Source: Bacteroidota bacterium (GTDB lineage Bacteria > Bacteroidota > Bacteroidia > Bacteroidales > UBA10428). From it: 64,000 bases of DNA. The translations under genes were made by a program, and so were the position numbers. The notes beneath the pieces are model-generated. The model was not told the DNA's origin. It saw nothing but the letters and a program-made list of their open reading frames with translations, and ran no database searches. The DNA is taken from NCBI GenBank assembly GCA_003252385.1, contig QKEH01000139.1, positions 22,598 through 86,597 on the forward strand. The letters run 5' to 3'. The first letter of the stretch is position 1, and the number at the start of each line of letters is the position of its first letter. Shown piece by piece: positions 923 to 43,353 of this stretch.

Positions 923-929
923 GGTACTG

Positions 930-1604: not shown

Positions 1605-1641
1605 AAGTACCTTACTTGATTAAACCAAAGTAAAGTTAGTA

Positions 1642-5861: not shown

Positions 5862-5864
5862 ACC

Positions 5865-6962: not shown

Positions 6963-7030
6963 TTCCTGCATATAGGTTGCACAGCCATTTTACCCCGGGA
7001 ACGATCCCTAAGAATTTAATAAAGAAGATG

Positions 7031-7507: not shown

Positions 7508-7625
7508 GAAATACCTTTTTTGAATTCTCTATAAAAGATAGTTCGTTTATTTATGAGTGCCAATGGGAGAAAGAAAAAATCTATCTCCTTAAAAAACCGG
7601 CTGCCATGCAACCGGTTTCCAAACC

Positions 7626-8348
7626 TTATCGGAGGGTGAAGTTCTTTCCCAGATACACTTTGCGCACTTGCTCGTCGTTGGCCAAATCTTCGGCCGTCCC
7701 CGATTTTAGGATGTCTCCTTCGAACAACAGGTAGGCCCGGTCGGTAATTGAAAGGGTTTCGTGAACGTTGTGGTCAGTAATCAGTATTCCAATATTTTTC
7801 TGAATCAATTTCGAAACAATCTCCTGAATATCTTCTACGGCAATAGGATCGACGCCTGCAAAAGGTTCGTCCAGCAGAATGAATTTAGGATCTATGGCCA
7901 GCGCCCGGGCAATCTCAGTACGCCGACGCTCGCCCCCCGAAAGCTGAATACCCAGGCTCTTGCGTATTTTCTGTAATCCGAATTCGTTCAACAGCGACTC
8001 CACCCGATCTGCCTGCTCCTCCTTGGCCAATTTCGACATTTCCAGCACCGCCTTCAGGTTGTCTTCCACGGAAAGCTTGCGGAATACCGAAGCTTCCTGC
8101 GCCAGGTAGCCAATACCCATTTGCGCCCGCTTGTACACCGGTTCCCGGGTAATCTCTTTATCGTCCAGATAAATTTTACCACTGTTTGGGGTAATGAGTC
8201 CCACCATCATATAAAACGTAGTGGTTTTCCCTGCTCCGTTTGGACCCAGCAGCCCAACAATCTCACCCTGCTCCACTTCAACAGAAACTTCCTTAACTAC
8301 AGTGCGGTTGCGATAGCGTTTAACCAGGTCTTCGGTTCGTAATTTCAT
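7626..8348 (-). CDS. lptB: LPS export ABC transporter ATP-binding protein LptB
   Basis: Walker [10 protein letters not shown], signature LSGGERRR, Walker [13 protein letters not shown], and [10 protein letters not shown] plus a VRKVYLG tail typical of LptB. I chose the internal ATG at 8346-8348 ([12 protein letters not shown]...). The track ORF extends to 8483 with non-homologous-looking sequence. Confidence 0.85.
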
Positions 8349-8526
8349 GCGATGCGTATTTCTGATGGCGACAAATGTAACAATTTTTCCTGTTGCACAC
8401 ACGTAGTGTCTACGCCGGCACAAACCCACAGCCATGCGGGCATGCAGCGAGGACACTAGGTTCTGAAAACGGCAGTGCCGCATGCCCTGCAGCTTTTACC
8501 AATTAGCAAGCGCTCTCTAATGTATT

Positions 8527-11004
8527 TTAGAAGGTTAATTGCAACGTGGCACGCAAACCAAAGGTCTGGATGTTGGGATGATCCAAATACGACAATCGCC
8601 ACATGGCATCTACCCGTATCAGATTAAACAGGTTTTCGAAACCGATACCCGCTTCGTAGTAAGGTTTGCTGAGTCCGGAAAGCCCCAACGGGAAGTCCAT
8701 CACGTTACGATTCTTATCGGACAGGCTACCCACCAATCCCTTTACGGTTACCACCTCGCGCAGCTTCAGCCAACGTAAAAAGGGAATCCGGTTAAAGAAA
8801 AAACCCTGCATATGTTGTTCAGCAGCCAGCATAGCATAGCGGTCGCTCACAAACTCGTAGTAATTCATCATGTTGAAAGACTGAGGATCGTAGGCATAGG
8901 TTTCGTTCCCATCGTGTAGTTCCAGTAAGGGATAAGGCAGGGTACCAAACACCTGGCCGCCTATCAACTTGTATTTAAAATAGCCAAACGGATTGGTCTC
9001 AATTTTATCCGAAATCTGGGTGCGCAGCCGAAAGTATTCGTAATCACTTCCCAAGAAACCCTTTGGCCCATAGGTAAAGTCAACGTCAAGAATAGGAAAA
9101 TTCGACCCCACACTAATCCGTTCAAAAAAAGCCGTTAAAAACTTCTCCCGGTAGCCATAATGCAAATTCAATGTAATTTCGGACGAGGTCAATGGTCCCT
9201 GATCCATATCCTGAATCTGAAAAGGAACGTATCCGGTTGGATAGATCACCTGATGGCGAAGGGTCAACGTGTTGGAAAAACCCTGGTACCACTCTCGCAT
9301 AAATTCCAAATTCACCTGGTCTACCAGAGTTAACTTGTAATTGGGGTTCCTCCGAAGCAGGGTGGTCATAATGTTATCGTCCAGAAAGGCATTGGCACTT
9401 TTTCCCAATTGCCGCACATCGTGATAATACGACCCCATAAACATAATCCGAGGGTTGGTATTAAACATATACTCCATGGTTCCACCGTACTTCACCTTCT
9501 GATCCAAACTACCGTATGCCACGTGCCCGCCCAAACGAACCACCTTACTGAAATTAGGGTTGGTTCGCCCTCCCAGCCGTATGCGATGCCCTTCAATGGG
9601 ATTATGACTATACGTGGTATAGTAGGGGCCATACTCCACAGGACCGAACTCGTAGTAATATTCCGTCAGCATCTGTATCACGCTGTGTATCCGTTCAAAT
9701 GCCGGCATTTTTACCACCGAGTCTACCATGGAATAAATATTCTGCTCCTCCTCATCGAGTTCCACGGTACGGTTTGCTACCCAATAGGCTTCATCCTTAT
9801 CCAGGTTGGACGGATCTATGTAGGTATCGGTATGCATAGTTTCAATGCTGTCAGGAATGGGCACATCCAACTGAATGTTGCTGTACACCGAAGTTTTTCG
9901 CCCAAAAAAACCGGTACCCTTATCGGTCAGGTAAAAATCCAGTAGTAAATCCTCGCGCGACAGGAACCAGGTAGTATCGTTTACCCGTTGGTATTCGTTC
10001 ACCGCCATCAAATCGTTCAGGTAATTGATGTTGACATCGGGCGATACCCGCAACTGTATTTTTTTGATAGCAAAAGAGGTGTCGGCTACCCAAAAATAGC
10101 CATAGAAGGTACGTTCCAGCTTGCGCTTGGGCTTGAAATTGATCTTGAAACACCACGTGTCATCAATCATGGCGCTGTCTTCGAGCTGGTATTTGTAATA
10201 GGCACGGCCAAAATCGGCGATGGGGCTCACAAAACCCGGCTCAAAGAGGGTCATAAAATCATCGTAGATGTTGAGTTGTGCATACATCTTACCCGAAAAC
10301 TGCGAAATGGTATTGTTCTGCACCCCGCTGATCCGGAACGCATCGATCACCTCCCGTTCCAGTTTCGGGTTCTTCCGATAGTAGTAATGCGCCTTGCTTT
10401 CCGACATGAGTATGGGCAGGTAGTTTTTTCCAAATACCTCTGAGCTGTCCATGTTCTCAAAAATAAACTGGAAATTACGTACAAACATCTTATCCTTAAA
10501 GTCGTGTTTCACATTGTTCATATCGAGCCGAAGTTTGTTGTACGAATCGTACCGGTACGATGAAAAACGATTGGGATTATTCTGCTTTTTATGCGCTGAA
10601 ATATTACGCAATACGGCAAATGCCGGATTTTCGCCCGGGGTAACCACCACTTCTTCCAACATCAGGCTGGATGCCTTCAAATCGAAACGAACCTGTTGTT
10701 TGGTATGTTGAATGATGGCCATTTTCCCAGAGTTGTATCCCATACACGATGCCATAAGTGTATCGCTGGCCTGAAGAGTTTCCAGATAAAAGAATCCCTC
10801 AAAATCGGTTATGGTACCCGAGGTAAGCCCCTTGTATGTGACGTTTGCAAAAGGAATGGGTTCGCCAGTTTCGGCATCGTACACTCCTCCGTGCACCATG
10901 GTTTTTTGAGCATGTCCCCTGCCCGCTTGAACCAGTAACAGCACAAGGAGCCATAAAAAGCGAACTGAAAAAAGATTCATAAACCCAACCATTTTTGAAA
11001 ACAT
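8527..11004 (-). CDS. CarboxypepD_reg-like domain plus DUF5686-type outer-membrane protein
   Basis: Signal peptide (LWLLVLLLVQAGRGHAQ), then GGVYDAETGEPIPFANV...TDFEGFFYLE (carboxypeptidase-regulatory-like fold), then a long Tyr/Gly-rich beta-barrel-like C-terminus ending in ...TLQLTF. The start may instead be the ATG at 10980. Confidence 0.7.
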   Translation of the reverse strand: MFSKMVGFMNLFSVRFLWLLVLLLVQAGRGHAQKTMVHGGVYDAETGEPIPFANVTYKGLTSGTITDFEGFFYLETLQASDTLMASCMGYNSGKMAIIQHTKQQVRFDLKASSLMLEEVVVTPGENPAFAVLRNISAHKKQNNPNRFSSYRYDSYNKLRLDMNNVKHDFKDKMFVRNFQFIFENMDSSEVFGKNYLPILMSESKAHYYYRKNPKLEREVIDAFRISGVQNNTISQFSGKMYAQLNIYDDFMTLFEPGFVSPIADFGRAYYKYQLEDSAMIDDTWCFKINFKPKRKLERTFYGYFWVADTSFAIKKIQLRVSPDVNINYLNDLMAVNEYQRVNDTTWFLSREDLLLDFYLTDKGTGFFGRKTSVYSNIQLDVPIPDSIETMHTDTYIDPSNLDKDEAYWVANRTVELDEEEQNIYSMVDSVVKMPAFERIHSVIQMLTEYYYEFGPVEYGPYYTTYSHNPIEGHRIRLGGRTNPNFSKVVRLGGHVAYGSLDQKVKYGGTMEYMFNTNPRIMFMGSYYHDVRQLGKSANAFLDDNIMTTLLRRNPNYKLTLVDQVNLEFMREWYQGFSNTLTLRHQVIYPTGYVPFQIQDMDQGPLTSSEITLNLHYGYREKFLTAFFERISVGSNFPILDVDFTYGPKGFLGSDYEYFRLRTQISDKIETNPFGYFKYKLIGGQVFGTLPYPLLELHDGNETYAYDPQSFNMMNYYEFVSDRYAMLAAEQHMQGFFFNRIPFLRWLKLREVVTVKGLVGSLSDKNRNVMDFPLGLSGLSKPYYEAGIGFENLFNLIRVDAMWRLSYLDHPNIQTFGLRATLQLTF

Positions 11005-29769: not shown

Positions 29770-30063
29770 TCGTCATTTCTCGCCACTTTTCTTAAAACGA
29801 CGTACTAATTTTCGCTAATTTTAACTCCATGTCGTTTCGTAAAACGATCTTTTCTTTGCCTTCATAAGTATTTTCCGGAGAAACCACCTGCAAAGCCAGC
29901 CCTGATAGGCAGGAGAGACACCAAACGTATCGACAATAAATTTTAGTAACTAGTATAAACCCGGAGTCATTCGACAGATTGGTAAACCGGTCGAATGATT
30001 CGCATCGGCGGGCATTACAACCGATGCAGGATGCTTGAACTAATTGCGTGTCATGTAACTGAT

Positions 30064-31143
30064 ATGAATATCGCCAGGAAAAACCCATTCCGTAAATTGC
30101 GAAGAACCAACATCATCTACCCCATCCTTTTCGGTATTGGAGTGGTGGCAGTCATCTTCTATCGTAATTTCGACCCATCGATATTCCATGAAATTCACGT
30201 TACACGACTTGCCGGATTATGGCTGGCCATTGCTATCGGGTTGATGGCAGTAAGGGATATCAGCTATATGATACGATTGAAAATTCTTAGCGAAAATTCA
30301 TTTTCCTGGAAACAATCCTTTCGCATCATTATGCTTTGGGAATTCACTTCGGCGGTGACCCCCTCGGCCATTGGAGGTACCAGCTTTGCCATCATCTTTT
30401 TGAATAAGGAAGGGCTCAAGCTGGGACACGCCTCTGCGGTGGTTATGGCTACCTCTTTTCTGGACGAATTGTACTTCCTGCTTACCTTCCCCTTGCTGCT
30501 CATCTTTTTAAGTGCCGACAAACTCTTTCAGGTGGGTGAGCCCATTGGTAATGCACTGAGTTTCTCCAATGAGTTTTTTGTATTTGCCGTGGTTGGATAT
30601 AGCGTTAAACTACTCTACACCCTGGCCTTAAGTTATGGACTGTTTTTTAACCCCCGAGGGTTGAAATGGCTCCTGCTGTGGATATTCCGACTCCCCATAC
30701 TACGCCGATGGCGTAAAGAAGCTAACGAAGCCGGAAGCGAAATCATTACCTCATCGTACGAATTGCGCCGTAAGCCATTTCGGTTTTGGCTAAAAGCATT
30801 TGGAGCCAGTTGCGTATCGTGGACCTCCAGATACTGGGTGGTCAATGCCCTGTTTCTGGTGTTTTTCGCCGTACCCGATCATTTTCTGCTCTATGCGAGG
30901 CAGCTGGTGGCCTGGATCATAATGCTCATTATACCTACTCCAGGCGGGAGTGGCGGTTCGGAGTGGATCTTTGCACAGTATCTCGGGGATCTTATCGATG
31001 CTGCTCCGGAGATTAAATCTTCTATTGCCATTGTGCTTGCCTTCATCTGGCGATTGATCAGTTACTATCCTTACCTTATAATTGGCAGTGTAATCTTCCC
31101 GTCCTGGATTCGAATGATGTTTGGCAAATCCTCCAATGAATAA
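30064..31143 (+). CDS. Flippase-like / LPG-synthase-TM (UPF0104) family membrane protein
   Basis: About 8 hydrophobic segments and the family-typical PTPGGSGGSE motif. I chose the ATG at 30064 (MNIARKNPFRKLRR) over the upstream track start. Confidence 0.65.
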   Translation: MNIARKNPFRKLRRTNIIYPILFGIGVVAVIFYRNFDPSIFHEIHVTRLAGLWLAIAIGLMAVRDISYMIRLKILSENSFSWKQSFRIIMLWEFTSAVTPSAIGGTSFAIIFLNKEGLKLGHASAVVMATSFLDELYFLLTFPLLLIFLSADKLFQVGEPIGNALSFSNEFFVFAVVGYSVKLLYTLALSYGLFFNPRGLKWLLLWIFRLPILRRWRKEANEAGSEIITSSYELRRKPFRFWLKAFGASCVSWTSRYWVVNALFLVFFAVPDHFLLYARQLVAWIIMLIIPTPGGSGGSEWIFAQYLGDLIDAAPEIKSSIAIVLAFIWRLISYYPYLIIGSVIFPSWIRMMFGKSSNE

Positions 31144-31343: not shown

Positions 31344-32189
31344 ATGTGTATGACGGTAACAGACCAGGATTTTCAGTTGTTTATTTTTGCCCTTAAGACT
31401 TCTTCCAAATATGACTTCAGTGAGTATTCAGAGAAATCACTAAAGAGAAGGCTCACCAAGATATTAGCTGACAACAAGCTCAACATTAAATTGCTGCTGA
31501 ATAAGATCAAAACAGATCCGGAATTTGTTGAGCAAATAGTTAAGGAGGTTACAGTAAACACCACCGAACTCTTTCGGGATCCTCAGGTATGGCATGCATT
31601 GCGCTACACCATACTGCCCAAACTAAGAAACAATTCTGTTATTAATATCTGGCACGCTGGCTGCTCTACCGGCCAGGAAGTGTATTCCATGATGATCGTT
31701 CTTAACGAAATCGGATTATTGGATAAAACCAAGATTTATGCCACCGATATCAATACCGATGTGATTGAACAGGCTCAAAAGGGAGAGTACAAATACCGTT
31801 TCAACATAGGATACCTGGATAATTTCGATAAGGTAATTAAAGAAAATCCCTATAACTACGAAGAGTATTACGATGTGCCTTATGAAAAATATTTTAGCAT
31901 TAATAAGGCTACCGATACGATTCAAATGCACGATTTCTTAAGAAACAAACCCATCTATAAAAAACACGACCTGGTCAAGGAGAACAATACCCTGTTTGTA
32001 AAATTTGACATCATTCTCTGCCGAAATGTAATCATCTACTTTAACTATAACTTACAGGGCAGGGTATTTGACCTGTACCATCGAAACCTTTATGACAATG
32101 GTTGCCTGATCCTGGGCATGCACGAAACCATTCTGGGTTCCTACTCGGTAAAATTCCAGAAAAAAGGACACGCTTATTACAAAGCCTAA
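31344..32189 (+). CDS. CheR-type protein-glutamate O-methyltransferase (motifs intact)
   Basis: Aligns by eye to Salmonella CheR: TELFRD (TxFFRE), NIWHAGCSTGQEVYSMMIVL (VWSAAASTGEEPYSIAITL), IYATDIN (FASDID), ILCRNVIIYFN (FCRNVMIYFD) and LILGMHE (LFAGHSE). Confidence 0.85.
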   Translation: MCMTVTDQDFQLFIFALKTSSKYDFSEYSEKSLKRRLTKILADNKLNIKLLLNKIKTDPEFVEQIVKEVTVNTTELFRDPQVWHALRYTILPKLRNNSVINIWHAGCSTGQEVYSMMIVLNEIGLLDKTKIYATDINTDVIEQAQKGEYKYRFNIGYLDNFDKVIKENPYNYEEYYDVPYEKYFSINKATDTIQMHDFLRNKPIYKKHDLVKENNTLFVKFDIILCRNVIIYFNYNLQGRVFDLYHRNLYDNGCLILGMHETILGSYSVKFQKKGHAYYKA

Positions 32190-32209: not shown

Positions 32210-34390
32210 ATGAATCTCAAACAAATTCATATTAAATATAGGTTTTATCTCCAACTTGCGCTGTTTGTGCTATTCATGGCCTGTTTGGCCTTTAGTACGT
32301 ACCAGCTGTCCCAAAAGGCGAGTCGTGCACAAAAGTCAACACTGGAATTGTATAGTTTGGTTGAAGAAAGCGAAAACGCATTCATTCAGTATGTCAGTTT
32401 CCTATACAACCTCAATAGTACGGACGAGTTCTACCAAACCGGTTCCAATAGTAATACAAGAGCGTTACAAGCCTCGCTGCAAAGTTTGGAAGATACTTTG
32501 CAAGTCTTCTCTAATAAGAACCGTTTTGCCGCCAGACTGGCAAAACTCGGTTGGAACGACTCCCTGCGAAACGCCCTGGAAGCAGTCCAGGCTAATTTTC
32601 AGTTAACCAGCTTAACCCTTAAAGAACTGGGCAATAAAAACTCCGGACAAACCGGACATGCCCTGGCCTCCAGCAATCAAATTAAATTGCTCTTACGCCC
32701 CTATCCGTATCCATCCTTGCATAATGAGCTCGCCCGGTTACAATTTGCCGAGTCGGAATTTATTTTTAGTAAAGATCAACAGGCATACAACGATGCCCTG
32801 GAACACTTGGAATTGTTGCAATACGACCCAAACCTGGGAATGCTGGATTTCAGTATCCAGGATGAAATCCAACAGCACGCCGAAACCTATAAAAACTATT
32901 TATCACTAATACAAGCTTCCCTAAACAATCTGGGAAGCATCGCCAGCGGCCAGGGTTTGCTTCCTGATATGGAACACTCCTTACGTAACTTGGAAAACCA
33001 AGCCCACAACTACCAGGAGCATGCCCAAATGGAACAGGAGAAATACTCCCGGAATGCATGGTTGGCCGGAATCTTTTTGCTGCTGCTTATTGCAACAGGA
33101 TACCTCTATCAGCTCTACCGCTTTTATGCCAGTGTATACAATCCGCTGGAGTCTTTATCCGATTTCTCGGTTCAACTGGCTAAAGGTCATAAAAAAGTGA
33201 CTGCCTTGGAAACCCGAGTTCCTGCTGAATATGTCCATGTTTTTACCCATCTGAACGAGGTCTATCAATCCATTCAGAAAAAACGCGACTTTGTTGATAA
33301 TTTGCTTAAACAAAATTTCGATTCTGAACTGACTCTGCAGGGAAAACACGACCAGTTTGGTAAAACTTTATTGGCCTTGAAAGAAAGCATGCGAAAAGCC
33401 CGCAACGAAGAGTTAAAGTATGCAGAGGAAAACCAGAAACGCCAATATCAGAACGAAGGCATTGCCAAATTCTCCGAAATTATGCGCTCCCACAGCGACA
33501 GCCTGTCGGAGCTTGCTGATGAATTTATCAAAAACATTGTACGATACCTGGAGGCCATTCAGGGCGGTTTATTCTTAATCGACGAAGAAAAACCGGAAGT
33601 AATGAACCTGGCAGCAGCCTTTGCATACAACCGGAAGAAGTATCTTTCCCGAACCATTAAAATTGGAGAAACCCTGGTGGGAACCTGTGCCCAGGAAAAG
33701 AAAACAACACATCTGAACGAACTGCCCGAAAACTACATCGAAATTACCTCAGGTCTCGGCGAGACCCCCCCCAGCAATCTCCTACTGGTTCCCATCATGC
33801 ACGAAGAGCTATTGATCGGAGTGCTTGAAATGGCCTCCCTAAAAGCATTCCAAAGTATCCAAATTCAACTATGCGAAAAAATTTGCGACAGTCTGGCTTC
33901 CACGATTATTAATGCTCGCATTAGCACGAGAACTGCTGCCTTATTGGAAAAATCGCAGCAGCAGGCCGCCGAGATGGCGGAGCAGGAAGAAGAAATGCGC
34001 CAAAATATGGAAGAATTACAAGCCACCCAGGAAGAATCGCAACGCCGTGAAGAAGAACTGGAAGGCTTCCTGGAAGCTATCGATCAGTCTTTCTATGTTT
34101 TAGAATACAACACCAGCGGAACAATTATTAAAGTTAATCAGCGCTTCCTGTATTTAACCAACCTATCTATTGACAAAATCATTGGTAAAACCCATCGGGA
34201 AATATTTGGATCTAAGAGTAAAGTCGATTCGGCTTTCTTTGCCAAAATTGCAGATGGAAATATTGTCGATCTGACCGAGGTCGTCATCATAAATGATAAA
34301 AAGCTGGAGCTGAAAAATACCTTCTCCCCGGAGAAAGACCGGTCCGGAGAAACGATTAAAATATTAAATATCATGACAGTGATCATGTAG
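32210..34390 (+). CDS. Membrane sensor with MCP-like topology but no MCP signalling domain: TM, ~270-aa helical periplasmic domain, TM, HAMP-like linker, GAF, coiled coil, PAS
   Basis: I chose the ATG at 32210 (MNLKQIHIKYRFYLQLALFVLFMACLAF). The second TM segment is WLAGIFLLLLIATGYLY. The GAF core is YLEAIQGGLFLID...ITSGLGETPPSNLLLVPIMHEELLIGVLEMAS. The coiled coil is EQEEEMRQNMEELQATQEESQRREEELEG, and a PAS-like C-terminus follows (FYVLEYNTSGTIIKVNQRF). Confidence 0.75.
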   Translation: MNLKQIHIKYRFYLQLALFVLFMACLAFSTYQLSQKASRAQKSTLELYSLVEESENAFIQYVSFLYNLNSTDEFYQTGSNSNTRALQASLQSLEDTLQVFSNKNRFAARLAKLGWNDSLRNALEAVQANFQLTSLTLKELGNKNSGQTGHALASSNQIKLLLRPYPYPSLHNELARLQFAESEFIFSKDQQAYNDALEHLELLQYDPNLGMLDFSIQDEIQQHAETYKNYLSLIQASLNNLGSIASGQGLLPDMEHSLRNLENQAHNYQEHAQMEQEKYSRNAWLAGIFLLLLIATGYLYQLYRFYASVYNPLESLSDFSVQLAKGHKKVTALETRVPAEYVHVFTHLNEVYQSIQKKRDFVDNLLKQNFDSELTLQGKHDQFGKTLLALKESMRKARNEELKYAEENQKRQYQNEGIAKFSEIMRSHSDSLSELADEFIKNIVRYLEAIQGGLFLIDEEKPEVMNLAAAFAYNRKKYLSRTIKIGETLVGTCAQEKKTTHLNELPENYIEITSGLGETPPSNLLLVPIMHEELLIGVLEMASLKAFQSIQIQLCEKICDSLASTIINARISTRTAALLEKSQQQAAEMAEQEEEMRQNMEELQATQEESQRREEELEGFLEAIDQSFYVLEYNTSGTIIKVNQRFLYLTNLSIDKIIGKTHREIFGSKSKVDSAFFAKIADGNIVDLTEVVIINDKKLELKNTFSPEKDRSGETIKILNIMTVIM

Positions 34391-34406: not shown

Positions 34407-35237
34407 ATGGTTGAACTAGGAATTGTAGACATACGCGAGATTATTCGACTGGTAAACGCAAACTTCGGTTTCGATTTGTCCAATTTTGCCCTTACTTCGC
34501 TGAAGTACCGGCTGGAACACATTATTTCGAAAAACAGTTTAACCAGTCCGGAGAATTTGTTCCGCAAACTGACTTCCGAACAGGCGTTTTTCGACACCTT
34601 CCTATCGCAACTGTTTGTACCCTCATCGGAAATGTTTCGCGACCCGTCGGTGTGGCGCTGGTTGCGTGAAGAGTATTTCGCTACCTTGGCAGACAATGCC
34701 CTGATGAATTATAAAATATGGGTGCCATTCTGCATTTCAGGTGGAGAATTGTGTACCCTATGCATTGTACTTAAAGAATTACGCCTCTTAGACAAGGTTA
34801 AAATTTACGCCACCTATTTTAGCGATTCCTCCCTGGAACAAATCAAGTCAGGGGTATATCCCTTAAAAAAAGTACAGGTGTCCGCAGAAAACTACCGCCG
34901 GTTTAAAGGCGATGCCAATTTCGAAGAGTATTACACCATGGATCAATATAACGCCAAAAGAGTGCTGGATTTATTTGATTCCGTCGAATTTATAAAGGAC
35001 GACCTCTCGTTTGGCAAAGCGCCCAAAAACGTAAAACTGGTGTTAATGCGCAATTCGCTGATTTATTTTAAACCTAATTTTCAGGATGATATATTGAATG
35101 TAATCTATCAAAGTATGTCTGCGGCTGGAATTCTTCTGCTGGGTTTGCAGGAACTCATCACAAAAAACCAAAATACCAAGTCATTATTTGACCCACAGGA
35201 GATAAGCGAGAGTATTTACAAAAGAAGAATAGGGTAG
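34407..35237 (+). CDS. Divergent CheR-like protein (SAM-binding motifs altered)
   Basis: It has the CheR fold pattern (SEMFRDPSVW, KIYAT, LMRNSLIYF, LLLGLQE). Motif I reads KIWVPFCISGGE instead of xxWxAGCSTGEE, and ATDID is replaced by ATYFS. Confidence 0.75.
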   Translation: MVELGIVDIREIIRLVNANFGFDLSNFALTSLKYRLEHIISKNSLTSPENLFRKLTSEQAFFDTFLSQLFVPSSEMFRDPSVWRWLREEYFATLADNALMNYKIWVPFCISGGELCTLCIVLKELRLLDKVKIYATYFSDSSLEQIKSGVYPLKKVQVSAENYRRFKGDANFEEYYTMDQYNAKRVLDLFDSVEFIKDDLSFGKAPKNVKLVLMRNSLIYFKPNFQDDILNVIYQSMSAAGILLLGLQELITKNQNTKSLFDPQEISESIYKRRIG

Positions 35238-35240
35238 CAT

Positions 35241-35798
35241 ATGAACTATAAGGCCGTAATAATAGGAGGATCAGCAGGTAGCTTTCAAATTGTTACCCGA
35301 ATACTCAATTCCCTGAACCCGAATTTTCCCCTGCCGGTTTTACTCTGCCTACACCGTTTGAAACATGTACGCTCCGGTTTTGTGGAAGCCCTTTCGTTGA
35401 AATCAAATATCCCCATATCAGAGCCCTACGACAAAGACCAGTTAAAACCCGGAAACGCATACCTGGCACCTGCCAATTACCATATGTTTGTGGAACTGGC
35501 CAACCGCATAGCTCTTTCCACCGATGAGCCAGTCAATCATTCCCGTCCATCTATCGACCTGTCCTTTGTTACCGCCGCCAATGCCTACCGCGATAAGTTA
35601 ATCGGCATCATTCTTTCGGGAGCCAATCGCGATGGAGCTTTTGGACTTAAAAAAGTGGTAGATAACGGAGGCTTAAGCATTGTTCAGGATCCACAGGAAA
35701 GCGAAGTAAAAACCATGCCAACATCCGCCTTGCAACTAACCAAAGTTGACTACGTATATACCACCGATCAAATTATCCGATTCCTGCAAAAACTCTAG
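35241..35798 (+). CDS. CheB-type protein-glutamate methylesterase, catalytic domain only (no receiver)
   Basis: 185 aa. Candidate triad residues are Ser in VIIGGSAGS (GASTGG in CheB), His in LLCLHRL (TQHMP) and Asp in LSGANRDGA (LTGMGNDGA). It also has the HSRPSIDLSF core motif. Confidence 0.85.
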   Translation: MNYKAVIIGGSAGSFQIVTRILNSLNPNFPLPVLLCLHRLKHVRSGFVEALSLKSNIPISEPYDKDQLKPGNAYLAPANYHMFVELANRIALSTDEPVNHSRPSIDLSFVTAANAYRDKLIGIILSGANRDGAFGLKKVVDNGGLSIVQDPQESEVKTMPTSALQLTKVDYVYTTDQIIRFLQKL

Positions 35799-35799: not shown

Positions 35800-36576
35800 A
35801 TGCCCCCAATAAACCAACATAAAATTCAAACTTTACTGCCCTTCCTGGGCGTATTGCTCTGCATCCTGTTGCTGGTTATCAGCTTCTGGAACCATAGCCT
35901 CAAGTGTGAACTTGGAGTGAGCGCCTGGGCGTTAGTATTTTTAGTTTTAAGTATAGCCTCTCTCGCTTATGTTTACCTTCAGGTGGTAAAAGCCACCGAT
36001 CCAAAACATACCGAATCCCTAATTCAAACCGAAGTCGAAAAAGAACGCACCAAGATCCTGGCCAGTTTCGAAACCCACGAAGAACAGCAGGCAGATGACC
36101 TCCTGACTCTCCAAAAACAGGCAGATGAAATTCTTCCAAAAGGCACATTCAATCAAACCGACAAATTTCTGGATAAATTACTTTCCAATCTGTCGAAACA
36201 CCTTCAACTCTCCATGGGACTAGCCTATACGTTGTCTGAGCAAGGCGATGAATATTTTTTTTCAACAGCCTATGCGCTCACCCACGACGAACCTCTTCAA
36301 AGTTTCAAACCCGGTGACAATTTGAACGGTGAAGTAGCCCGAACACTGGAAACATTAATCCTTAACGATATTCCCGAAGATTATTTCCCCATAGAATCGG
36401 GCTTGGGTAAATCGCAACCAAAAACCCTGATTATTGCCCCTATTGTTCATGATAGTACATGTATTGCTATTCTTGAAATTGCTACCTTTAGTACGGTAGA
36501 CCATCAAGCCAAATTGATTATTGATGAAGTTTGCCAGAAGGCAGCCGGTAGACTTTTACAAATACAAAAGTCATAA
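35800..36576 (+). CDS. Two-TM protein with cytoplasmic GAF domain (short paralog of the sensor GAFs)
   Basis: The ATG at 35800 follows the cheB-like stop codon by one nucleotide. It has two hydrophobic segments, then a GAF core (YFPIESGLGKSQPKTLIIAPIVHDSTCIAILEIAT) paralogous to those in 32210-34390 and 36587-39211. Confidence 0.65.
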   Translation: MPPINQHKIQTLLPFLGVLLCILLLVISFWNHSLKCELGVSAWALVFLVLSIASLAYVYLQVVKATDPKHTESLIQTEVEKERTKILASFETHEEQQADDLLTLQKQADEILPKGTFNQTDKFLDKLLSNLSKHLQLSMGLAYTLSEQGDEYFFSTAYALTHDEPLQSFKPGDNLNGEVARTLETLILNDIPEDYFPIESGLGKSQPKTLIIAPIVHDSTCIAILEIATFSTVDHQAKLIIDEVCQKAAGRLLQIQKS

Positions 36577-36586: not shown

Positions 36587-39211
36587 ATGACGAAACTATT
36601 ACAGCTATATAACAAATATTTTGGCAAGGATACGAACCAATTGCCTTTTGCGATTGTACTGGGATGCTTTTTGCCTATCATAGCATGGGTTATTGAAATA
36701 ATCTATCACAAAGCACCTGTTAGCCCTGCAGGACTGCTCCAATTACACAAAGAAAATGGGGCCCTTTTCGTGATCGACCTAATCCCTCTGCTATTAATTG
36801 GGTTAACTGCAATTACCCGTTTCAACCAGAAAACAGTAACCGAAGAATTCAATACAAAGTTGAATTCCCAGGAAAGACACTTGCAAAGCCTGGCCGAATT
36901 TGCCAAACAAATAGGCGAAGGCAATTACAATACCCAGCTCAATGTCGAAGAAAATAACGACTCGCTATCGCAGGCACTACTGGTTATGCGCGAGAACCTG
37001 GTTGCCAACCATAAAAAAGACACCGAACAGAACTGGATAGCCGAAGGGAAGGAAATAGTTTCTGACATCATGCGAACCAACAGCAGGGTTGAAGATCTAA
37101 CAATTCAAGTAATACGCGCGCTGGTGAAATACGTCAATTTGGTACAAGGCGCACTGTACCTTTATAACGAAGAGAAAGAAATACTTGAAAATGTTGCTAC
37201 CTATGCCTATAACCGCCAGAAATATATCAACCAAACCTTCAAAATTGGCCATGGACTAATTGGAGCCTGTGCCTACGAGAAAGAGTACATCTATCGTACC
37301 GAAATTCCCGACACTTATGCTACCATCACCTCCGGAATACTGGGCGATCAGAAACCCCAAAGCATTTTACTGGTACCTCTTATAACCGATGAAAAACTGC
37401 AAGGTGTAATTGAATTTGCCACCCTCCAAAAAGAAATCCCGGAACTTACCATACGTTTGTTGGTTGAATTGGCCGAGATTATTGCCCGCACCGTATTCAA
37501 TCTAAAAATAAACCAGCGTACGGAGATGCTCCTCCGCGAATCGCAGAAGATGACGGCTGAACTCAAGGAGAACGAAGAGCAGCTGCAACAAAACGCCGAG
37601 GAAATGCGAGCCACCCAGGAGGAACTCCAAAAATCCAACGAGCAACTCGAAACCAATATTCAAAAAGTGGAGAATGCTCAGAAACGACTTTATTCCCTGC
37701 TCGAAAATGCCTCGGAGATCATCGCCATCTACAATGAAAATATGCAGCTTACCTACGAGAGTCCGTCGGTAATTAAAATTCTGGGCTACACCCCGGAAGA
37801 GATGATGGGTGGCAAGGATATGGATCGTTTGACCCGAAAAGGGGAAACCGCTATGCGCCAAATGTTTAAGCAAATACTGGCGAACCCATCCGAAGCCGTA
37901 TCGATTCAGTATACCTACATGAAGAAGAACGGTCAGAAGATATTCCTTGAAACCACCGGACGAAATCTTCTGGATGATCCGGCCATCAATGGAATTATTT
38001 TGAATTCGAGCGATATTACCGAACGAAAACGCGCCGAGAAAGAGGAACGGATGCGAAGCAAGATGCAGGCACTTTCGGAGAACTCATTGGACATGATTCT
38101 TCGACTTAGCACCGTTGGTCAGTTCTTTTATGCCAACCCCATGGTAAAAAACTATACCGGCATCGATAATCAAAACCTCATCAATAAAACTCTTAACGAA
38201 GTTAACTTTGATGAAATCCTGTTCAATTATTTCCGCGACACCATAGCCGAAATAAAGGAATCCCCTGAAAAAACGACCAAAGAAATTACCATTACCGTTC
38301 CCACAGAGGATGGTGGCACGGAAGAAAGCATTATGAGTTTCAATGCCATCCCTGAATTTAATGAGAACGAGCTGGAAACTATCCTTTTTGTAGGACACGA
38401 TATAACTGAAGCCAAACGTATTGAACTGGAGATTCAGGATAAAAATCGAAAAATTGAAGATTCCATCAACTACGCGCGCCGAATTCAAACCTCTATACTC
38501 CCGGATAACCGGGTACTCCGCGAAGCATTACCCAAATCGTTCATATTTTATCGCCCTCGTGATGTGGTTAGTGGCGATTTCCCCTGGTACTTCCGAAAAG
38601 GCGATGATATTTTTATTGCTGCTGTAGACTGTACAGGGCATGGTGTTCCAGGAGCATTGCTCTCATTCATCGGGTACTTTTTGCTGAATAACATAGCCGA
38701 CCATCCCGTTGAACACACGGCATCCAGTTTGTTGAATAACCTCCATGCCTCGGTTCGAAAAACCCTGAAACAGGACGAAACCAATGCCGAAGCCCGTGAT
38801 GGAATGGACATTGCACTTTGTAAAATCAACTTTAAAAAAATGGAACTGCAATATGCAGGTGCCCACCGACCCCTTTACTTTTTGCGCGAAGGAGAACTTA
38901 CCGAATACAGAGGCGATCGCAAAGCCATTGGCGGCATTCCTCATAAAAACAAACTGGAAAAAGACTTTACGAATTATAGCATCGATCTTCAAAAAGGAGA
39001 CCGGGTATTCTTCTTCTCCGATGGACTCCCCGACCAACTGGGAGGGGATGAAGCAAAAAAATACTCCCCGAAACGAATTCGCGACAATATTGTTGAGAAC
39101 AAACACTTGACTATGGAGGAATATAATACTTTCTTTGCGAATGACTTTCTGGGTTGGATGACGAATCACAAACCGATTGACGATGTCCTCTTAATAGGCA
39201 TCGAGTTTTAA
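36587..39211 (+). CDS. Membrane sensor phosphatase (SiaA/RsbU-like): 2 TM, HAMP-like linker, GAF, coiled coil, 2 PAS, PP2C/SpoIIE
   Basis: I chose the ATG at 36587. The GAF core is YVNLVQGALYLYN...ITSGILGDQKPQSILLVPLITDEKLQGVIEFAT and the coiled coil is ENEEQLQQNAEEMRATQEELQKSNEQLE. The PAS boundaries are DITERKRAE and DITEAKRIE. PP2C motifs are ARRIQTSILP, VSGDFPWY, AAVDCTGHGVPGALLS, FFFSDGLPDQ and DDVLLIGIEF. Confidence 0.8.
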   Translation: MTKLLQLYNKYFGKDTNQLPFAIVLGCFLPIIAWVIEIIYHKAPVSPAGLLQLHKENGALFVIDLIPLLLIGLTAITRFNQKTVTEEFNTKLNSQERHLQSLAEFAKQIGEGNYNTQLNVEENNDSLSQALLVMRENLVANHKKDTEQNWIAEGKEIVSDIMRTNSRVEDLTIQVIRALVKYVNLVQGALYLYNEEKEILENVATYAYNRQKYINQTFKIGHGLIGACAYEKEYIYRTEIPDTYATITSGILGDQKPQSILLVPLITDEKLQGVIEFATLQKEIPELTIRLLVELAEIIARTVFNLKINQRTEMLLRESQKMTAELKENEEQLQQNAEEMRATQEELQKSNEQLETNIQKVENAQKRLYSLLENASEIIAIYNENMQLTYESPSVIKILGYTPEEMMGGKDMDRLTRKGETAMRQMFKQILANPSEAVSIQYTYMKKNGQKIFLETTGRNLLDDPAINGIILNSSDITERKRAEKEERMRSKMQALSENSLDMILRLSTVGQFFYANPMVKNYTGIDNQNLINKTLNEVNFDEILFNYFRDTIAEIKESPEKTTKEITITVPTEDGGTEESIMSFNAIPEFNENELETILFVGHDITEAKRIELEIQDKNRKIEDSINYARRIQTSILPDNRVLREALPKSFIFYRPRDVVSGDFPWYFRKGDDIFIAAVDCTGHGVPGALLSFIGYFLLNNIADHPVEHTASSLLNNLHASVRKTLKQDETNAEARDGMDIALCKINFKKMELQYAGAHRPLYFLREGELTEYRGDRKAIGGIPHKNKLEKDFTNYSIDLQKGDRVFFFSDGLPDQLGGDEAKKYSPKRIRDNIVENKHLTMEEYNTFFANDFLGWMTNHKPIDDVLLIGIEF

Positions 39212-39232: not shown

Positions 39233-39814
39233 ATGGACAATAAAAAAGATGTAAAAGGCTTTCTGGAATTTGTCTACGAGTTCTACAAATCCATGAAAGC
39301 TCACGAAATCACCCTGGTGTATGAAGGAGAAATCACACACCAGATTACCAAAGCATTCACCTCGCTAACCGAGTCGAACATGGCCAAAGATGATGAGCCA
39401 GGAAATGTTCAACGGAAGGTTTTCCACGTAATGGTAGAATGCCTACAGAACATTAGCAAACATGCCGATGATTTTTCGTCGAGTGACTTCCTCTTCTCCG
39501 GGCGAGGCATTTTTCTGGTTAGCAAAGGCGATAATGAATACAGCGTAACCACCGGAAACGCTGTGGACAACGATAAAATCGAAGAGTTAACCAACATGCT
39601 CGAAACCATCAATAAAATGGATAAAGACGAGCTTAAAGATCTTTATAAAAAACAAATGAAAGAAGGACGCCTGTCGGAAAAAGGCGGAGCCGGACTTGGC
39701 TTTATCGATATTAAGCGCAAAACAGGCCGAGATCTTGAATATCACTTTTTGCCCATTTCGAACGATACTTCTTTCTTTTTATTAACTTCGACTATCTCAA
39801 GAGACGACAATTAA
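39233..39814 (+). CDS. SiaB/RsbW-like HATPase-fold Ser/Thr protein kinase
   Basis: 193 aa with an N-box-like VMVECLQNISKHA and a G-box-like EKGGAGLGFIDIKRKTG. The size and position, between a PP2C gene and a DUF1987 gene, match the SiaB arrangement. Confidence 0.65.
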   Translation: MDNKKDVKGFLEFVYEFYKSMKAHEITLVYEGEITHQITKAFTSLTESNMAKDDEPGNVQRKVFHVMVECLQNISKHADDFSSSDFLFSGRGIFLVSKGDNEYSVTTGNAVDNDKIEELTNMLETINKMDKDELKDLYKKQMKEGRLSEKGGAGLGFIDIKRKTGRDLEYHFLPISNDTSFFLLTSTISRDDN

Positions 39815-39827: not shown

Positions 39828-40208
39828 ATGGAAACTATCAAAATTCAAGGTACAGAAGATACCCCCAAAGTAACCCTAGATAAGGAGCATGAAATTATGG
39901 AGATATCGGGTCGGTCGTTACCGGAAGACGTAGCTTCATTCTATGATCCGGTTCTTGCCTGGTTGGACGAATATGCTCAGGATCCCAACCCAAAAACAGT
40001 ATTTAACTTCAAACTCATGTATTTCAACACTGCTTCGTCCAAGTTGATTCTGGATATCTTAATGAAGCTGGAAGAAATCCACGAAGCAGGACATGACGTA
40101 ACCATTCGTTGGCACTTCCCCGAGGACGATGAGGACATGGAAGAAGCAGGCGAAGAATACGCCGATATTGTAGATGTACCTTTTGATCAGGTACCCTATT
40201 CAGGTTAA
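39828..40208 (+). CDS. DUF1987 / SiaC-like partner-switch protein
   Basis: 126 aa: IKIQGTEDTPKVTLD...ISGRSLPEDVASFYDPVLAWLDEY...FNFKLMYFNTASSKLILDILMKLEE...IRWHF. This pattern is characteristic of DUF1987. The conserved Thr is at codon 68 (40029-40031). Confidence 0.75.
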   Translation: METIKIQGTEDTPKVTLDKEHEIMEISGRSLPEDVASFYDPVLAWLDEYAQDPNPKTVFNFKLMYFNTASSKLILDILMKLEEIHEAGHDVTIRWHFPEDDEDMEEAGEEYADIVDVPFDQVPYSG

Positions 40209-40251: not shown

Positions 40252-43200
40252 ATGAGTGAGGAAATTCTAAAAGCGCTTATGCAACTCTTTGCCATTGTGG
40301 CAAAGCAGGACGAAGGCGTTGAAGCAACCCAGGTAGATTATGTAAAGAACTTTCTGGAACAGCAGCTTACTGCTGAGAAGGTAGCGGAATACTATATGCT
40401 TTTCGAAAAGCATGCCGGGTTGCGGGATGAAGACGAATCGAAAATAAAAAATAAACTCACTTCAGTTCGCGATTCCGTGCGTATTCTGGGTTTGTGTAAA
40501 AAGATCAATAAGACACTTACCCAGAAGCAAAAAGTGGTTGCGTTACTGCGCCTCTTCGAAATTATCAACGCCGATCGCAAGTTTACCGACCAACGGATGG
40601 CAATCCTTAATACGGTTGCTGAGGTGTTCAATATTTCACAGGAAGAGTTTAAGAGTATCGAACTTTTTGTTGTTCAAACCCAACCGGAACACCTCGACAA
40701 CGAGAGTATACTTATCATCAACGATAAGAAGACACGGTTTGAACACGCCAAGAAGATCAAAACCAAAGAGCTTGATGCAGATATCTATATCCTTCGGATT
40801 GTAAGCGTTGATCTGTACTTCCTAAAATATACCGGTAATGAGGATTTGTATCTAAACGGACTACCCATCAACAATACCCGTATTTATCTTTTCGCGAATG
40901 GCAGCACTGTAAAACTCCCCAAAGGAGCACCTGTTTATTATAGTGATATTGCCGCACATTTTCTGGCGGACATCTCCGCCAGCAAGATATCCTTTACTGT
41001 TCGCGATTTGAGTTATCAATTCTCCAACGGAAATCTGGGTCTTCGAGACATTTCCTTCTCCGAAGGACATGGACGTTTGATCGGAATTATGGGAGCCAGT
41101 GGTGCTGGAAAAACCACCCTGTTGAATGTTCTGTCGGGCATTGAAGCTCCTACTCAGGGGGAAGTGCTGATCAACGGACTCAACCTGCACAAAGAAAAAG
41201 AAAAGTTGGAAGGAGTTATTGGGCTTATTCCCCAGGATGATTTGCTGATTGAAGAACTCACCGTTTTTGAGAATCTGTTTTACAATGCCAAGCTTTGCTT
41301 TAAGGATAAAAACGACAAGGAGATCACCCAACTGGTGAACAAAACCCTAACCAGCCTGGGACTTTTCGATCGCAAAGATTTAAAAGTTGGATCACCTCTT
41401 AAGAAAACCATCAGTGGAGGGCAACGCAAACGCCTGAACATTGCTCTTGAACTGATTCGGGAGCCCTCCATATTGTTTGTCGATGAACCGACTTCAGGAC
41501 TTTCTTCCCGCGACTCCGAAAATGTTATGGATCTTCTGCGGGAGCTTACCTTAAAAGGCAAGTTGATATTTGTGGTCATTCACCAACCTTCGTCCGACAT
41601 TTACAAAATGTTCGACAAAATGGTGATACTCGACACGGGCGGATATCTGATATACTATGGCAACCCGGTAGAAGGGGTCATGTATTTTAAACGCATGGAT
41701 GCCCAGATTAACAGCGATGTTGGCGAATGTGCAACCTGTGGTAATGTGAATCCGGAACTGATCTTCAACATTATTGAAGCCCATGTGGTGGATGAATTCG
41801 GCAACTATACCGATACGCGAAAAGTTTCGCCCACCAAATGGGAAGAGAACTACCAACAAAATTTCTTCCCCGAAGAAGTGGAAAGGGTTTCGGATCCACC
41901 CCCGAAATCTTTAAATATTCCCGGATGGTTCAAACAATTGAAAATTTATGGTATCCGGGATTTTTTGGCTAAGATCAGCAATCATCAATATGTCGCATTG
42001 AATCTGCTCGAAGCACCGGTACTTGGCTTCATACTCTCTTACCTGATCCGTTACATCGAAGACCCGAATTCAAAAATATACATCTTCAGGGTAAATGAGA
42101 ATATGCAGATATTTATCTTCATGTCTCTAATCGTAGCCCTTTTCCTTGGGTTAATGGTGAGCGCCGAGGAAATAGTCAAGGACAGGAAGATATTGAAGCG
42201 GGAAAAATTCCTCAATCTGAGTAAATCCAGCTACCTGCTTTCCAAAATATTAATACTCTTTATCATTAGCGCCATCCAGGCATTCCTGTTTGTGATTATT
42301 GCCAACAGCATTCTTGGGATAAAAGGAATGGGGTTCATCTACTGGTTTGCCCTGTTTTCTACAGCAGCTTTCGCCAATATGCTAGGGTTGAATATTTCCT
42401 CCACTTTCGATTCAGCCGTTACCATCTATATCCTTATACCGCTCCTCATGATACCCATGATGGTACTTAGCGGAGCCATGTTTAGTTTTGATAAATTGAA
42501 TCAACGTATCGGCCGGGTGGATAAAGTTCCGTTCATAGCCGAATTTATGGTCACCAAATGGGGCTACGAAGCTCTTATGGTACACCAGTTTAAGGATAAT
42601 AAATTTACTCATACTTTCTATGATTTAGAGCGACAGGAAAGTATTGCGGATTTCAAAAAGGTATACTACCTGCCGGAACTTCGCGACCGTCTCACCCGAA
42701 TTGATAAAGAACTTCGAGATATCAATCAGATTGATATCACCAAGGAAGATTTAACCTTACTAGTCAATGAGATTCGCAAGGAGAACAAACTGATCCGACT
42801 TATTGAGGATGATTTTATTAAGCAGGGCCATACCGAAGCAATTGACCTGATCAAACCGGTATACTTCGAGGATGTAGATGCTCTTACGAAAAATTTCACC
42901 TCACGGGATTCCCGGAGCGTTTACGAGTATTTAAAATCGCTGGATAGTTTCTATACCAATTTGTTTGCACTGGCCAGTAAGAAGCGTCAAAATATGATCA
43001 ACTACTTCCTGGAGAACCAACCGGAACGTTATCAGGAACGCTTTGACAGTTACTATAATGAAGCGATCTCCGATATACTTAAGAAAGTATATGAAAAACA
43101 GAAAATTCTGGAATACAGAAACCAACTGGTACAGCATATTGATCCGATATATGAGTATCCTATACCTTCGAATCCATTGAGCTTCCGAAGCCATTTCCTG

Positions 43201-43353
43201 GCCCCTTGCAAGCACTTTCTAGGCAAGTACTTCGATACCTACTGGTTCAATATGACCGTTATCTGGATTCTTACAGCGATATGCTATGGTTTATTGTATT
43301 TTGACGTGTTTAAAAAGCTGCTGACCATCAGCGAAAGTCTAAAAAGAAAATAA
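40252..43353 (+). CDS. ABCG-type half transporter (NBD then ABC-2 TMD) with ~260-aa N-terminal regulatory extension
   Basis: Walker A GASGAGKTT, signature ISGGQRKRLNIALEL and Walker B ILFVDEPTSGLS, with 5-6 C-terminal TM segments. The N-terminus is TerB-like and helical (LMQLFAIVAKQDEGVEATQVDYV...), followed by a beta-rich segment (DADIYILRIVSVDLYFLKYTGNEDLYLNGLPINNTRIYLFANGSTVKL). Confidence 0.85.
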   Translation: MSEEILKALMQLFAIVAKQDEGVEATQVDYVKNFLEQQLTAEKVAEYYMLFEKHAGLRDEDESKIKNKLTSVRDSVRILGLCKKINKTLTQKQKVVALLRLFEIINADRKFTDQRMAILNTVAEVFNISQEEFKSIELFVVQTQPEHLDNESILIINDKKTRFEHAKKIKTKELDADIYILRIVSVDLYFLKYTGNEDLYLNGLPINNTRIYLFANGSTVKLPKGAPVYYSDIAAHFLADISASKISFTVRDLSYQFSNGNLGLRDISFSEGHGRLIGIMGASGAGKTTLLNVLSGIEAPTQGEVLINGLNLHKEKEKLEGVIGLIPQDDLLIEELTVFENLFYNAKLCFKDKNDKEITQLVNKTLTSLGLFDRKDLKVGSPLKKTISGGQRKRLNIALELIREPSILFVDEPTSGLSSRDSENVMDLLRELTLKGKLIFVVIHQPSSDIYKMFDKMVILDTGGYLIYYGNPVEGVMYFKRMDAQINSDVGECATCGNVNPELIFNIIEAHVVDEFGNYTDTRKVSPTKWEENYQQNFFPEEVERVSDPPPKSLNIPGWFKQLKIYGIRDFLAKISNHQYVALNLLEAPVLGFILSYLIRYIEDPNSKIYIFRVNENMQIFIFMSLIVALFLGLMVSAEEIVKDRKILKREKFLNLSKSSYLLSKILILFIISAIQAFLFVIIANSILGIKGMGFIYWFALFSTAAFANMLGLNISSTFDSAVTIYILIPLLMIPMMVLSGAMFSFDKLNQRIGRVDKVPFIAEFMVTKWGYEALMVHQFKDNKFTHTFYDLERQESIADFKKVYYLPELRDRLTRIDKELRDINQIDITKEDLTLLVNEIRKENKLIRLIEDDFIKQGHTEAIDLIKPVYFEDVDALTKNFTSRDSRSVYEYLKSLDSFYTNLFALASKKRQNMINYFLENQPERYQERFDSYYNEAISDILKKVYEKQKILEYRNQLVQHIDPIYEYPIPSNPLSFRSHFLAPCKHFLGKYFDTYWFNMTVIWILTAICYGLLYFDVFKKLLTISESLKRK

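Follow-up and report, generated by a model that had tools for sequence, protein, structure and literature searches.

A conserved acidic helix as a candidate methyl-accepting segment in a SiaA-like sensor phosphatase of Bacteroidota

Introduction

Bacterial chemotaxis has its textbook memory device in the reversible methylation of glutamate residues. Beyond the chemoreceptors themselves, glutamate methylation has been shown experimentally for very few proteins, and the case that we found, RsbK of Bacillus cereus, operates without a paired esterase. Here we analyse a stretch of 64,000 nucleotides from an uncultured member of the Bacteroidales (Bacteroidota; contig QKEH01000139.1, positions 22,598 to 86,597, hereafter the window), in which genes for CheR- and CheB-type enzymes precede the gene for a sensor ending in a SpoIIE/PP2C phosphatase domain (the PP2C sensor), followed in turn by genes related to siaB and siaC. 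An original prediction had proposed that an acidic coiled coil of this sensor, referred to below as the module, carries glutamate pairs open to methylation and Gln residues open to deamidation by CheB, so that the phosphatase itself would receive a methylation input.

RsbK is a CHASE3-HAMP-GAF-S-helix hybrid kinase that feeds a PP2C/partner-switch pathway, and the helix following its GAF domain is methylated by the CheR-type enzyme RsbM (PMC4574943; PMC12848376). In a comparison of architectures, the system described here resembles RsbK in three respects: the putative acceptor helix comes immediately after the GAF domain of a membrane sensor, a gene for a CheR-type enzyme lies alongside, and the output is formed by a PP2C phosphatase with a partner switch. 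However, RsbK, a histidine kinase carrying a receiver, acts by phosphorylating a distinct PP2C protein (RsbY), whereas here the PP2C domain is fused to the sensor; and RsbM is an orphan enzyme, whereas here a CheB and a degenerate second CheR are also encoded.

The sites of methyl-accepting chemotaxis proteins (MCPs) such as Tsr and Tar are modified by CheR and CheB, and at some of them the gene specifies Gln, which CheB deamidates. In Tsr, the four orthodox methylation sites occupy heptad position c and are flanked by Glu at position b (PMC9282233). The enteric consensus is EExxA(S/T), and changing the first Glu of the pair lowers methylation about 35-fold (PMC1079850). The module shares with these receptors Glu/Gln pairs at b/c, the c residue being the one modified in MCPs, together with a 7-residue spacing and the EExxA(S/T) consensus, and its cluster encodes both enzymes. 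It differs from them in the absence of an MCPsignal domain, a hairpin tip and an antiparallel four-helix bundle: the module is a single inter-domain linker helix, presumably in a parallel dimer, with no significant sequence similarity to the MCP helices and no CheA or CheW in its cluster.

According to secondary descriptions, the MAC class was defined genomically in 2010 (Wuichet & Zhulin), with CheB and CheR either fused (MAC1) or associated (MAC2). Compared through these descriptions, our cluster fits the MAC2 idea with a phosphatase output: it has a non-chemoreceptor sensor whose coiled coil carries Glu pairs resembling methylation sites, separately encoded CheB and CheR homologues beside that sensor, and neither CheA nor CheW among the cluster genes. 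In both cases, moreover, the function is a prediction from genomics. The difference lies in the output, since in these descriptions MAC systems combine receptor and kinase in one protein, whereas here a PP2C domain acts on a SiaB/SiaC-type switch and most relatives of the module lack any output domain.

The output side of the cluster recalls the SiaABCD system of Pseudomonas aeruginosa, for which two reports describe the roles of SiaA, SiaB and SiaC (PMC7647112; PMC8457831). Both systems encode, in the same order, a SiaA-like membrane PP2C protein, a SiaB-family kinase and a SiaC-family phosphoprotein. Nevertheless, the SiaD diguanylate cyclase is missing from our cluster and an ABC/TerB protein follows instead, the sensor consists of GAF, acidic helix and two PAS domains and is preceded by CheR and CheB, and the scores obtained with the equivalog models of SiaA and SiaC remain under the respective cut-offs. 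Our literature search returned no paper linking CheR/CheB with SiaABC-type switches.

An acidic heptad helix between the GAF and PAS domains

Translation places the module in the linker between the GAF domain and the first PAS domain of the PP2C sensor, at positions 37499-37654 of the forward strand. This 52-residue heptad helix reads NLKINQRTEMLLRESQKMTAELKENEEQLQQNAEEMRATQEELQKSNEQLET, and the in-frame reading of the larger interval 37481-37720 contains NLKINQRTEMLLRESQKMTAELKENEEQLQQNAEEMRATQEELQKSNEQLETNIQK. The original prediction had recognised the helix sequence itself, while its start at 37510 was one base out of frame. We set the start codon of the sensor at the ATG that agrees with the lengths of 120 orthologues (856-875 amino acids), which yields a protein of 874 residues; in the numbering of the full open reading frame (896 residues), the GAF domain ends at about residue 323 and the module comes next.

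Four pairs, EQ/EE/EE/EQ, are spaced by 7 residues along the helix, and each is immediately followed by L or M. As had been predicted, the second pair belongs to an EEMRAT motif that fits EExxA(S/T), the outer pairs are encoded as Glu-Gln (Table 1), and the helix aligns without gaps and in the same register to the coiled coil of a paralogous sensor of the cluster. Over their 52 residues the two helices are 50% identical. In the 874-residue protein, residue 332 is the Gln of pair 1. We also built a profile (A2) solely from copies of the helix in other proteins and used it to scan the whole window in six frames. Two matches only were obtained, the paralogue helix (46.8 bits, E 8.6e-14) and the PP2C helix (28.2 bits, E 5.7e-8).

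The heptad phase was assigned from 457 aligned copies of the helix. Strongly hydrophobic columns (22, 29, 36, 43 and 50) define the d phase and columns 19, 26, 33, 40 and 47 the a phase, in which columns 26 and 40 are conserved polar residues, Glu and Gln. This assignment places the pairs at the solvent-exposed b/c positions and the variable E/Q residue at c. All pairs thus have an MCP-like site geometry, the full consensus EExxA(S/T) being found at pair 2 only. In an AlphaFold2 model of the sensor (mean pLDDT 74, pTM 0.34), most of the module lies in one helix, residues 286-352, which continues the last helix of the GAF domain. Confidence is low over residues 339-375, as expected from a monomer model in which the dimer partner is missing.

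The segment is a conserved coiled-coil signalling helix that connects the GAF domain with the PAS-PAS-PP2C portion of this SiaA-like phosphatase sensor, and by its sequence it is a candidate methyl-accepting segment.

Conservation of the four pairs among orthologues

Conservation was followed in two samples: 120 listed orthologues with 66-100% identity, and 80 species-level genome loci. The scan of genome contigs used patterns specific to PP2C orthologues and returned that lineage only. The helix is kept in all 120 listed orthologues and in the 80 species-level genomes.

The two central pairs are highly conserved across the 80 species. Pair 2 is EE in 76 (ED in 3, QM in 1) and pair 3 is EE in 73 (DE in 6, EQ in 1). 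Pair 1 takes mainly two forms, EQ in 45 species and EE in 33, with single occurrences of DQ and ET, while pair 4 is EQ in 27 of the 80 and otherwise TH, EK, KK, KN, AQ, AK, SN and so on. The first Glu of the pair is present at pairs 1, 2 and 3 in 79, 79 and 74 species, respectively. At pair 4 it is replaced by many different residues (E/T/K/A/S/L/D/H/R/Q/I), and the second residue is Q, K, N or H, never Glu. In the paralogous sensor, examined in 43 loci, pairs 1 and 2 are EE throughout, pair 3 is EE in 42 with one D-E, and pair 4 has Glu as its second residue in 41.

A neighbour-joining tree of 75 orthologues was used to count the changes at the variable residues. The second residue of pair 1 changed at least 10 times, at least 9 of these changes being between E and Q, and its only states are E, Q and one T; exposed positions near pair 1, unlike pair 1 itself, take K, Q, R, E or A. 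Switching between almost only two states is the pattern expected of a site acted upon by CheB and CheR. The second residue of pair 4 changed 15 times among Q, K, N and H; never being Glu and poorly conserved, it does not behave as a deamidation site. The predicted occupancy by E or Q thus holds in part: pairs 2 and 3 are conserved as EE and pair 1 is mostly, though not strictly, E or Q, while pair 4 departs from it. Similarly, the analogy with Gln-encoded sites of MCPs retains some support at pair 1, from the E/Q alternation of its second residue, tempered by the E-K pair of a distant orthologue, and finds none at pair 4. Pair 4 as a conserved E/Q site was accordingly discarded on the basis of both occupancy and tree.

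The conserved Glu residues of pairs 2 and 3 point outward, at positions that dimer packing does not require. Read from the sequence, this conservation speaks for modification.

Among distant orthologues, one cluster (L167, 1477-6926) encodes two output-less sensors with an all-Glu module and a PP2C sensor whose helix has E-K at pair 1. One of the output-less sensors bears a dCache ligand-binding domain, which resembles the varied sensor domains of chemoreceptors.

CheR and CheB genes beside the sensor gene

The gene context claimed in the original prediction, CheR, CheB and SiaB/SiaC-like proteins, was confirmed with Pfam and NCBIfam. The Ser/His/Asp triad of CheB is intact: its GGSAGS, CLH and NRDG motifs align with 3sft, and 1chd was also matched. 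The first CheR (CheR1; Table 1) is presumed from its motifs to be an active enzyme, and in nearly all orthologous loci its type keeps the motifs A[TS]D[IL]N and CRNVIIYF. In the second CheR (CheR2), PFCISGGE replaces AGCSTGEE and ATYF replaces ATDI, with loss of the Asp that binds the ribose of S-adenosylmethionine (SAM). In the two-CheR loci where the motif was recognised, this Asp is V, I, S, T or Y and the CheR1 of the same locus is intact. CheR2 may be a non-catalytic CheR paralogue kept beside CheB. Where a locus has a single CheR, the enzyme is mostly intact, no intact motif being found in four loci (L051, L066, L078 and L079).

Wherever the flanking sequence is long enough, L076 excepted, the PP2C gene is directly preceded by CheR and CheB genes. 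In about 24 loci the paralogous sensor is absent and the order CheR(-CheR)-CheB-GAF-PP2C-SiaB-SiaC-ABC is retained (for instance in L034); the PP2C helix is then the sole module copy of the locus. The exception, L076, is a metagenome-assembled genome of the Sphingobacteriia with no stand-alone CheR or CheB upstream, and its central pair is Q-M (NAQMMRIT), which is unique among the orthologues. This joint loss of the enzymes and of the central EE pair is suggestive of a link between them, as a single case.

The observations on L076 refer to its positions 10001-10156 and 1-9000. L076 also belongs to a clade (L060, 17423-20153; L047, L061, L063, L072 and L076; L070 in part) that encodes a receiver-only protein and a CheB-CheR fusion, with CheB at the N-terminus followed by CheR and then by further sequence, about 6 kb downstream of the PP2C cluster. 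Most loci of this clade have stand-alone CheR and CheB genes too.

An assignment of one CheR to each sensor was considered and rejected: CheR2 has lost the SAM-binding Asp in the two-CheR loci where the motif was recognised, and both CheRs persist in reduced clusters whose only sensor is the PP2C protein.

A wider family of module-containing proteins

Searched against a library of 1.84 billion, the 52-column profile matched 2772 representative proteins at E<=0.001. Most of the relatives surveyed (P0122-P0270, loci L083-L163) have architectures of the form (HAMP)-GAF-(module-PAS)n. In the top 150 relatives, each protein has 1-8 significant copies of the module, usually one before each PAS domain. 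None of nine proteins scanned with Pfam has an output domain, and a crude motif test on the top 150 classed 142 as having no output, 7 as PP2C and 1 as GGDEF, with no kinase.

The family consensus is ...LLxESQQQaEE[LM]kAQEEE[LM]RQN[ML]EELxATQEE[ML]xR...E[L]. Glu occurs in 93-96% of copies at columns 26-28, 34 and 35. At column 21, the second residue of a pair, E reaches 66% and Q 15%. The corresponding values are E 93% and Q 2% at column 28; E 96% at column 35; E 68%, Q 8%, D 8% and A 6% at column 42; and E 77% and Q 7% at column 49. At pair 2, E reaches 96% in both positions across the family, followed downstream by A in 79% and T in 82%.

Pfam has no model for the module, as judged from scans of the relatives and of isolated helices. 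The latter gave weak, generic coiled-coil matches only, and MCPsignal (PF00015) matched neither sensor of the window nor the isolated helices; a two-copy relative reached E 0.016 and 15.5 bits against this model, the cut-off being 34.6. There is thus, at the level of sequence, no evidence of homology to MCP methylation helices.

We also considered whether the module always lies beside CheR and CheB. It does not: this is the case in 4 of 33 long loci and, as far as the available flanks extend, in none of three other module-PP2C loci. Conservation of the helix away from local enzymes implies either that the enzymes act in trans, as on the products of scattered chemoreceptor genes, or that the helix has a function independent of methylation. 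Since most members of the family are not encoded beside CheR/CheB, methylation of the helix is inferred. In the three other module-PP2C loci (L164, L165 and L166), SiaB- and SiaC-like genes lie downstream of the module-PP2C gene; next come the gene of a TPR-PP2C protein and a second SiaC-like gene in L164 and L165, and the TPR-PP2C gene only in L166.

A possible methylation input and its alternatives

We propose, with moderate confidence and on sequence grounds, that the helix of the PP2C sensor is a substrate of the CheR and CheB of its own cluster and supplies the PP2C/SiaB/SiaC switch with an input for adaptation. The likeliest acceptors would be pairs 2 and 3, with pair 2 (EEMRAT) the best candidate. 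The intact CheR would methylate the second Glu of the conserved pairs and CheB would take the methyl groups off. Neutralisation of the acidic face would alter the packing or stability of a coiled coil made marginal by the conserved polar Glu and Gln at position a, and the state of the coiled coil would set the strength with which the input of the N-terminal and GAF regions reaches the PP2C domain. This domain and the SiaB-like kinase would then determine the phosphorylation state of the SiaC-like protein, so that the partner switch would gain a slow and reversible adaptation or memory input, as in chemoreceptors. As this CheB lacks a receiver domain, any feedback would necessarily arise from the quality of each conformation as a substrate, and not from phosphorylation of CheB.

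Several observations weigh against this proposal. The enteric consensus fits pair 2 alone, and the PP2C helix is the more diverged copy of the family, scoring 28 bits with the family profile against 47 bits for the paralogue. The best match of the helix profile among Protein Data Bank sequences (E 0.23) did not qualify as similarity to chemoreceptor helices, and no chemoreceptor was found. Pair 1 is E-K in the distant orthologues P0254 and P0227, and the first of these belongs to a complete cluster, in which CheB is accompanied by two CheRs and two sensors without output. At pair 2, E-D occurs in three orthologues despite the presence of CheR and CheB. In the wider family, CheR lies within 10 kb in only 4 of the 33 loci of at least 12 kb, and those 4 resemble the same cluster type; the module-PP2C-SiaB-SiaC loci L164, L165 and L166 lack CheR/CheB in the available flanks. 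The correlation seen in L076 depends on one case. Finally, methylation and deamidation of the PP2C sensor are deduced from sequence and gene context, and the MAC class was still described in 2022 as not experimentally characterised.

A first alternative retains the methyl-accepting helix and makes both Gln residues fixed, neutral methyl-mimics that bias the set point of the phosphatase, pairs 2 and 3 alone being cycled. We regard it as a tentative but serious possibility. The near invariance of EE at pairs 2 and 3 agrees with it, as does the second residue of pair 4, whose restriction to Q, K, N and H in the 75-80 orthologues looks like selection for a non-acidic residue; moreover, pair 1 can be K in distant orthologues that retain CheR/CheB. 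On the other hand, pair 1 is E or Q in 78 of the 80 species, with repeated switches between them, as if CheB made the two equivalent. Sequence alone cannot separate a fixed Gln from deamidation at this pair: the pair 1 Gln may be a fixed methyl-mimic, and we consider its deamidation by CheB possible but doubtful. At pair 4, the Gln is most likely no more than a non-acidic residue that the helix tolerates, and its deamidation, part of the original prediction, appears very improbable.

A second alternative is that the helix is a conserved linker for signalling or dimerisation, similar to the S-helix and unmodified, with CheR and CheB acting on the output-less paralogue or paralogues or on another substrate, and the E/Q alternation reflecting conservative substitutions at exposed positions. 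Much of what opposes methylation favours this explanation, in particular the scarcity of CheR near wider-family genes, the module-PP2C-SiaB-SiaC loci with no CheR/CheB nearby, and the acceptance of K at pair 1 and of E-D at pair 2. To these can be added the free variation of pair 4, the repeated occurrence of the module before PAS domains in proteins that mostly have no output, and the paralogue helix, which is all-Glu and nearer the family consensus. However, an action on the paralogue does not explain why the loci devoid of it still have CheR and CheB immediately before their GAF and PP2C genes. Nor does dimer packing alone explain Glu at 93-96% in the b/c positions of the two central pairs, and conservative substitution sits poorly with a pair 1 that is almost exclusively E or Q over at least 9 changes while neighbouring exposed positions vary. 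Chemoreceptor genes are often scattered away from cheR and cheB, and non-adjacency is in this respect weak evidence. On balance, we find the linker explanation, the main rival of our proposal, rather unlikely. A chance pattern in a Glu/Gln-rich, low-complexity coiled coil, suggested by the composition of the segment and by its weak matches to many unrelated coiled-coil Pfam families, is refuted by the independent profile finding just two sites in the whole window, by the size of the matching family and by column-by-column conservation in orthologues down to 66% overall identity.

If the proposed methylation input is real, a complete CheR/CheB adaptation pair would act directly on a sensor phosphatase driving a Ser/Thr partner switch, which would extend methylation-based adaptation from signalling by kinases to signalling by phosphatases, in Bacteroidota that are non-motile or move by gliding. 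The system is compact: a 52-residue helix with two nearly invariant Glu pairs and one natural E/Q-polymorphic position, served by an intact and a degenerate CheR and by a CheB without receiver, with natural variants that lack the paralogue or the enzymes. Thousands of multi-PAS proteins contain the module, for which Pfam offers no model, so that the question of its function reaches well beyond this locus.

A broader hypothesis, which we judge unlikely, is that the module serves Bacteroidota and related bacteria generally as a methyl-accepting unit of adaptation. The (HAMP)-GAF-(module-PAS)n proteins, which number in the thousands and many of which have several modules and no enzymatic output, would then be chemoreceptor-like transducers modified in trans by CheR, CheB or CheB-CheR fusions, and PP2C/SiaB/SiaC partner switches would replace CheA/CheY as outputs. 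Under the same hypothesis, the shared helix would allow the PP2C sensor to assemble with the paralogue or paralogues and with the small GAF protein of this cluster, and the degenerate CheR would be a non-catalytic adaptor.

Other components of the gene cluster

The features of the cluster are listed in Table 1. The PP2C part of the sensor is closest to SiaA (NCBIfam, 2e-48), under the equivalog cut-off, and its N-terminal helices are probably membrane-spanning. HisKA and HATPase_c were not detected in this protein with Pfam, its output being SpoIIE/PP2C. The SiaC-like protein, which scores 89.9 bits with NCBIfam, under the cut-off of 150, is the presumed substrate of the SiaB-like kinase and of the PP2C domain. 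SiaB-like and SiaC-like genes are present in 74 and 73 of the 80 orthologous loci, respectively. Pfam identified neither CheA nor CheW among the nine conserved cluster genes, a negative that covers these genes and not the remainder of the window, and there is no GGDEF (SiaD-type) gene in the cluster. The ABC/TerB gene is present in 71 of the 80 loci, and is split into separate TerB and ABC genes in the distant cluster L167; its product could, speculatively, be what the switch acts on, a role that the SiaD cyclase has in Pseudomonas.

Table 1. Genes of the cluster and features of the two module helices, in window coordinates
Feature	Position	Strand	Evidence
CheR-type methyltransferase (CheR1), intact motifs AGCSTGQE, ATDIN, CRNVIIYF	31344-32189	+	Pfam CheR 1.7e-36; 5ftw alignment
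Paralogous sensor without output domain ("MAC-A"): N-terminal region, GAF, module, one PAS	32210-34390	+	Pfam
Module of the paralogue, all four pairs Glu-Glu	33911-34066	+	Translation, profile match
Second CheR paralogue (CheR2), degenerate SAM-binding motifs	34407-35237	+	Pfam CheR 1.1e-21; 5ftw alignment
CheB methylesterase/deamidase, catalytic domain only, 185 amino acids, no receiver	35241-35798	+	Pfam CheB_methylest 1.1e-47
Small GAF protein, N-terminal hydrophobic region	35800-36576	+	Pfam GAF_2
PP2C sensor, 874 amino acids: N-terminal helices, GAF, module, PAS, PAS, SpoIIE/PP2C	36587-39211	+	Pfam
Pair 1, Glu-Gln (GAGCAG)	37577-37582	+	Translation; heptad b/c
Pair 2, Glu-Glu	37598-37603, inside EEMRAT 37598-37615	+	Translation
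Pair 3, Glu-Glu (QEEL)	37619-37624	+	Translation
Pair 4, Glu-Gln (GAGCAA)	37640-37645	+	Translation
SiaB-family protein kinase (DUF6272)	39233-39814	+	NCBIfam NF038262 175.5 bits, cut-off 85; Pfam DUF6272
SiaC-family phosphoprotein	39828-40208	+	Pfam SiaC 145.9 bits, cut-off 24.5
ATP-binding cassette (ABC) transporter fusion, TerB-like N-terminal region	40252-43353	+	Pfam families of orthologues

The paralogous sensor was found in 43 of the 80 orthologous loci, and a small GAF gene lies between the CheB and PP2C genes in 70 of them. The small GAF protein, in which no module was matched, terminates at the point where the acidic helix starts in its two larger relatives, and could pair with these larger sensors.

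The surroundings of the cluster vary. In one orthologous locus (L001, 1-4454), genes for the gliding-motility adhesin SprB and for PorP/SprF lie directly upstream of it. They are not found at that place in L002 or in the window, where an LPG_synthase_TM gene (29995-31143) is located upstream of the cluster.

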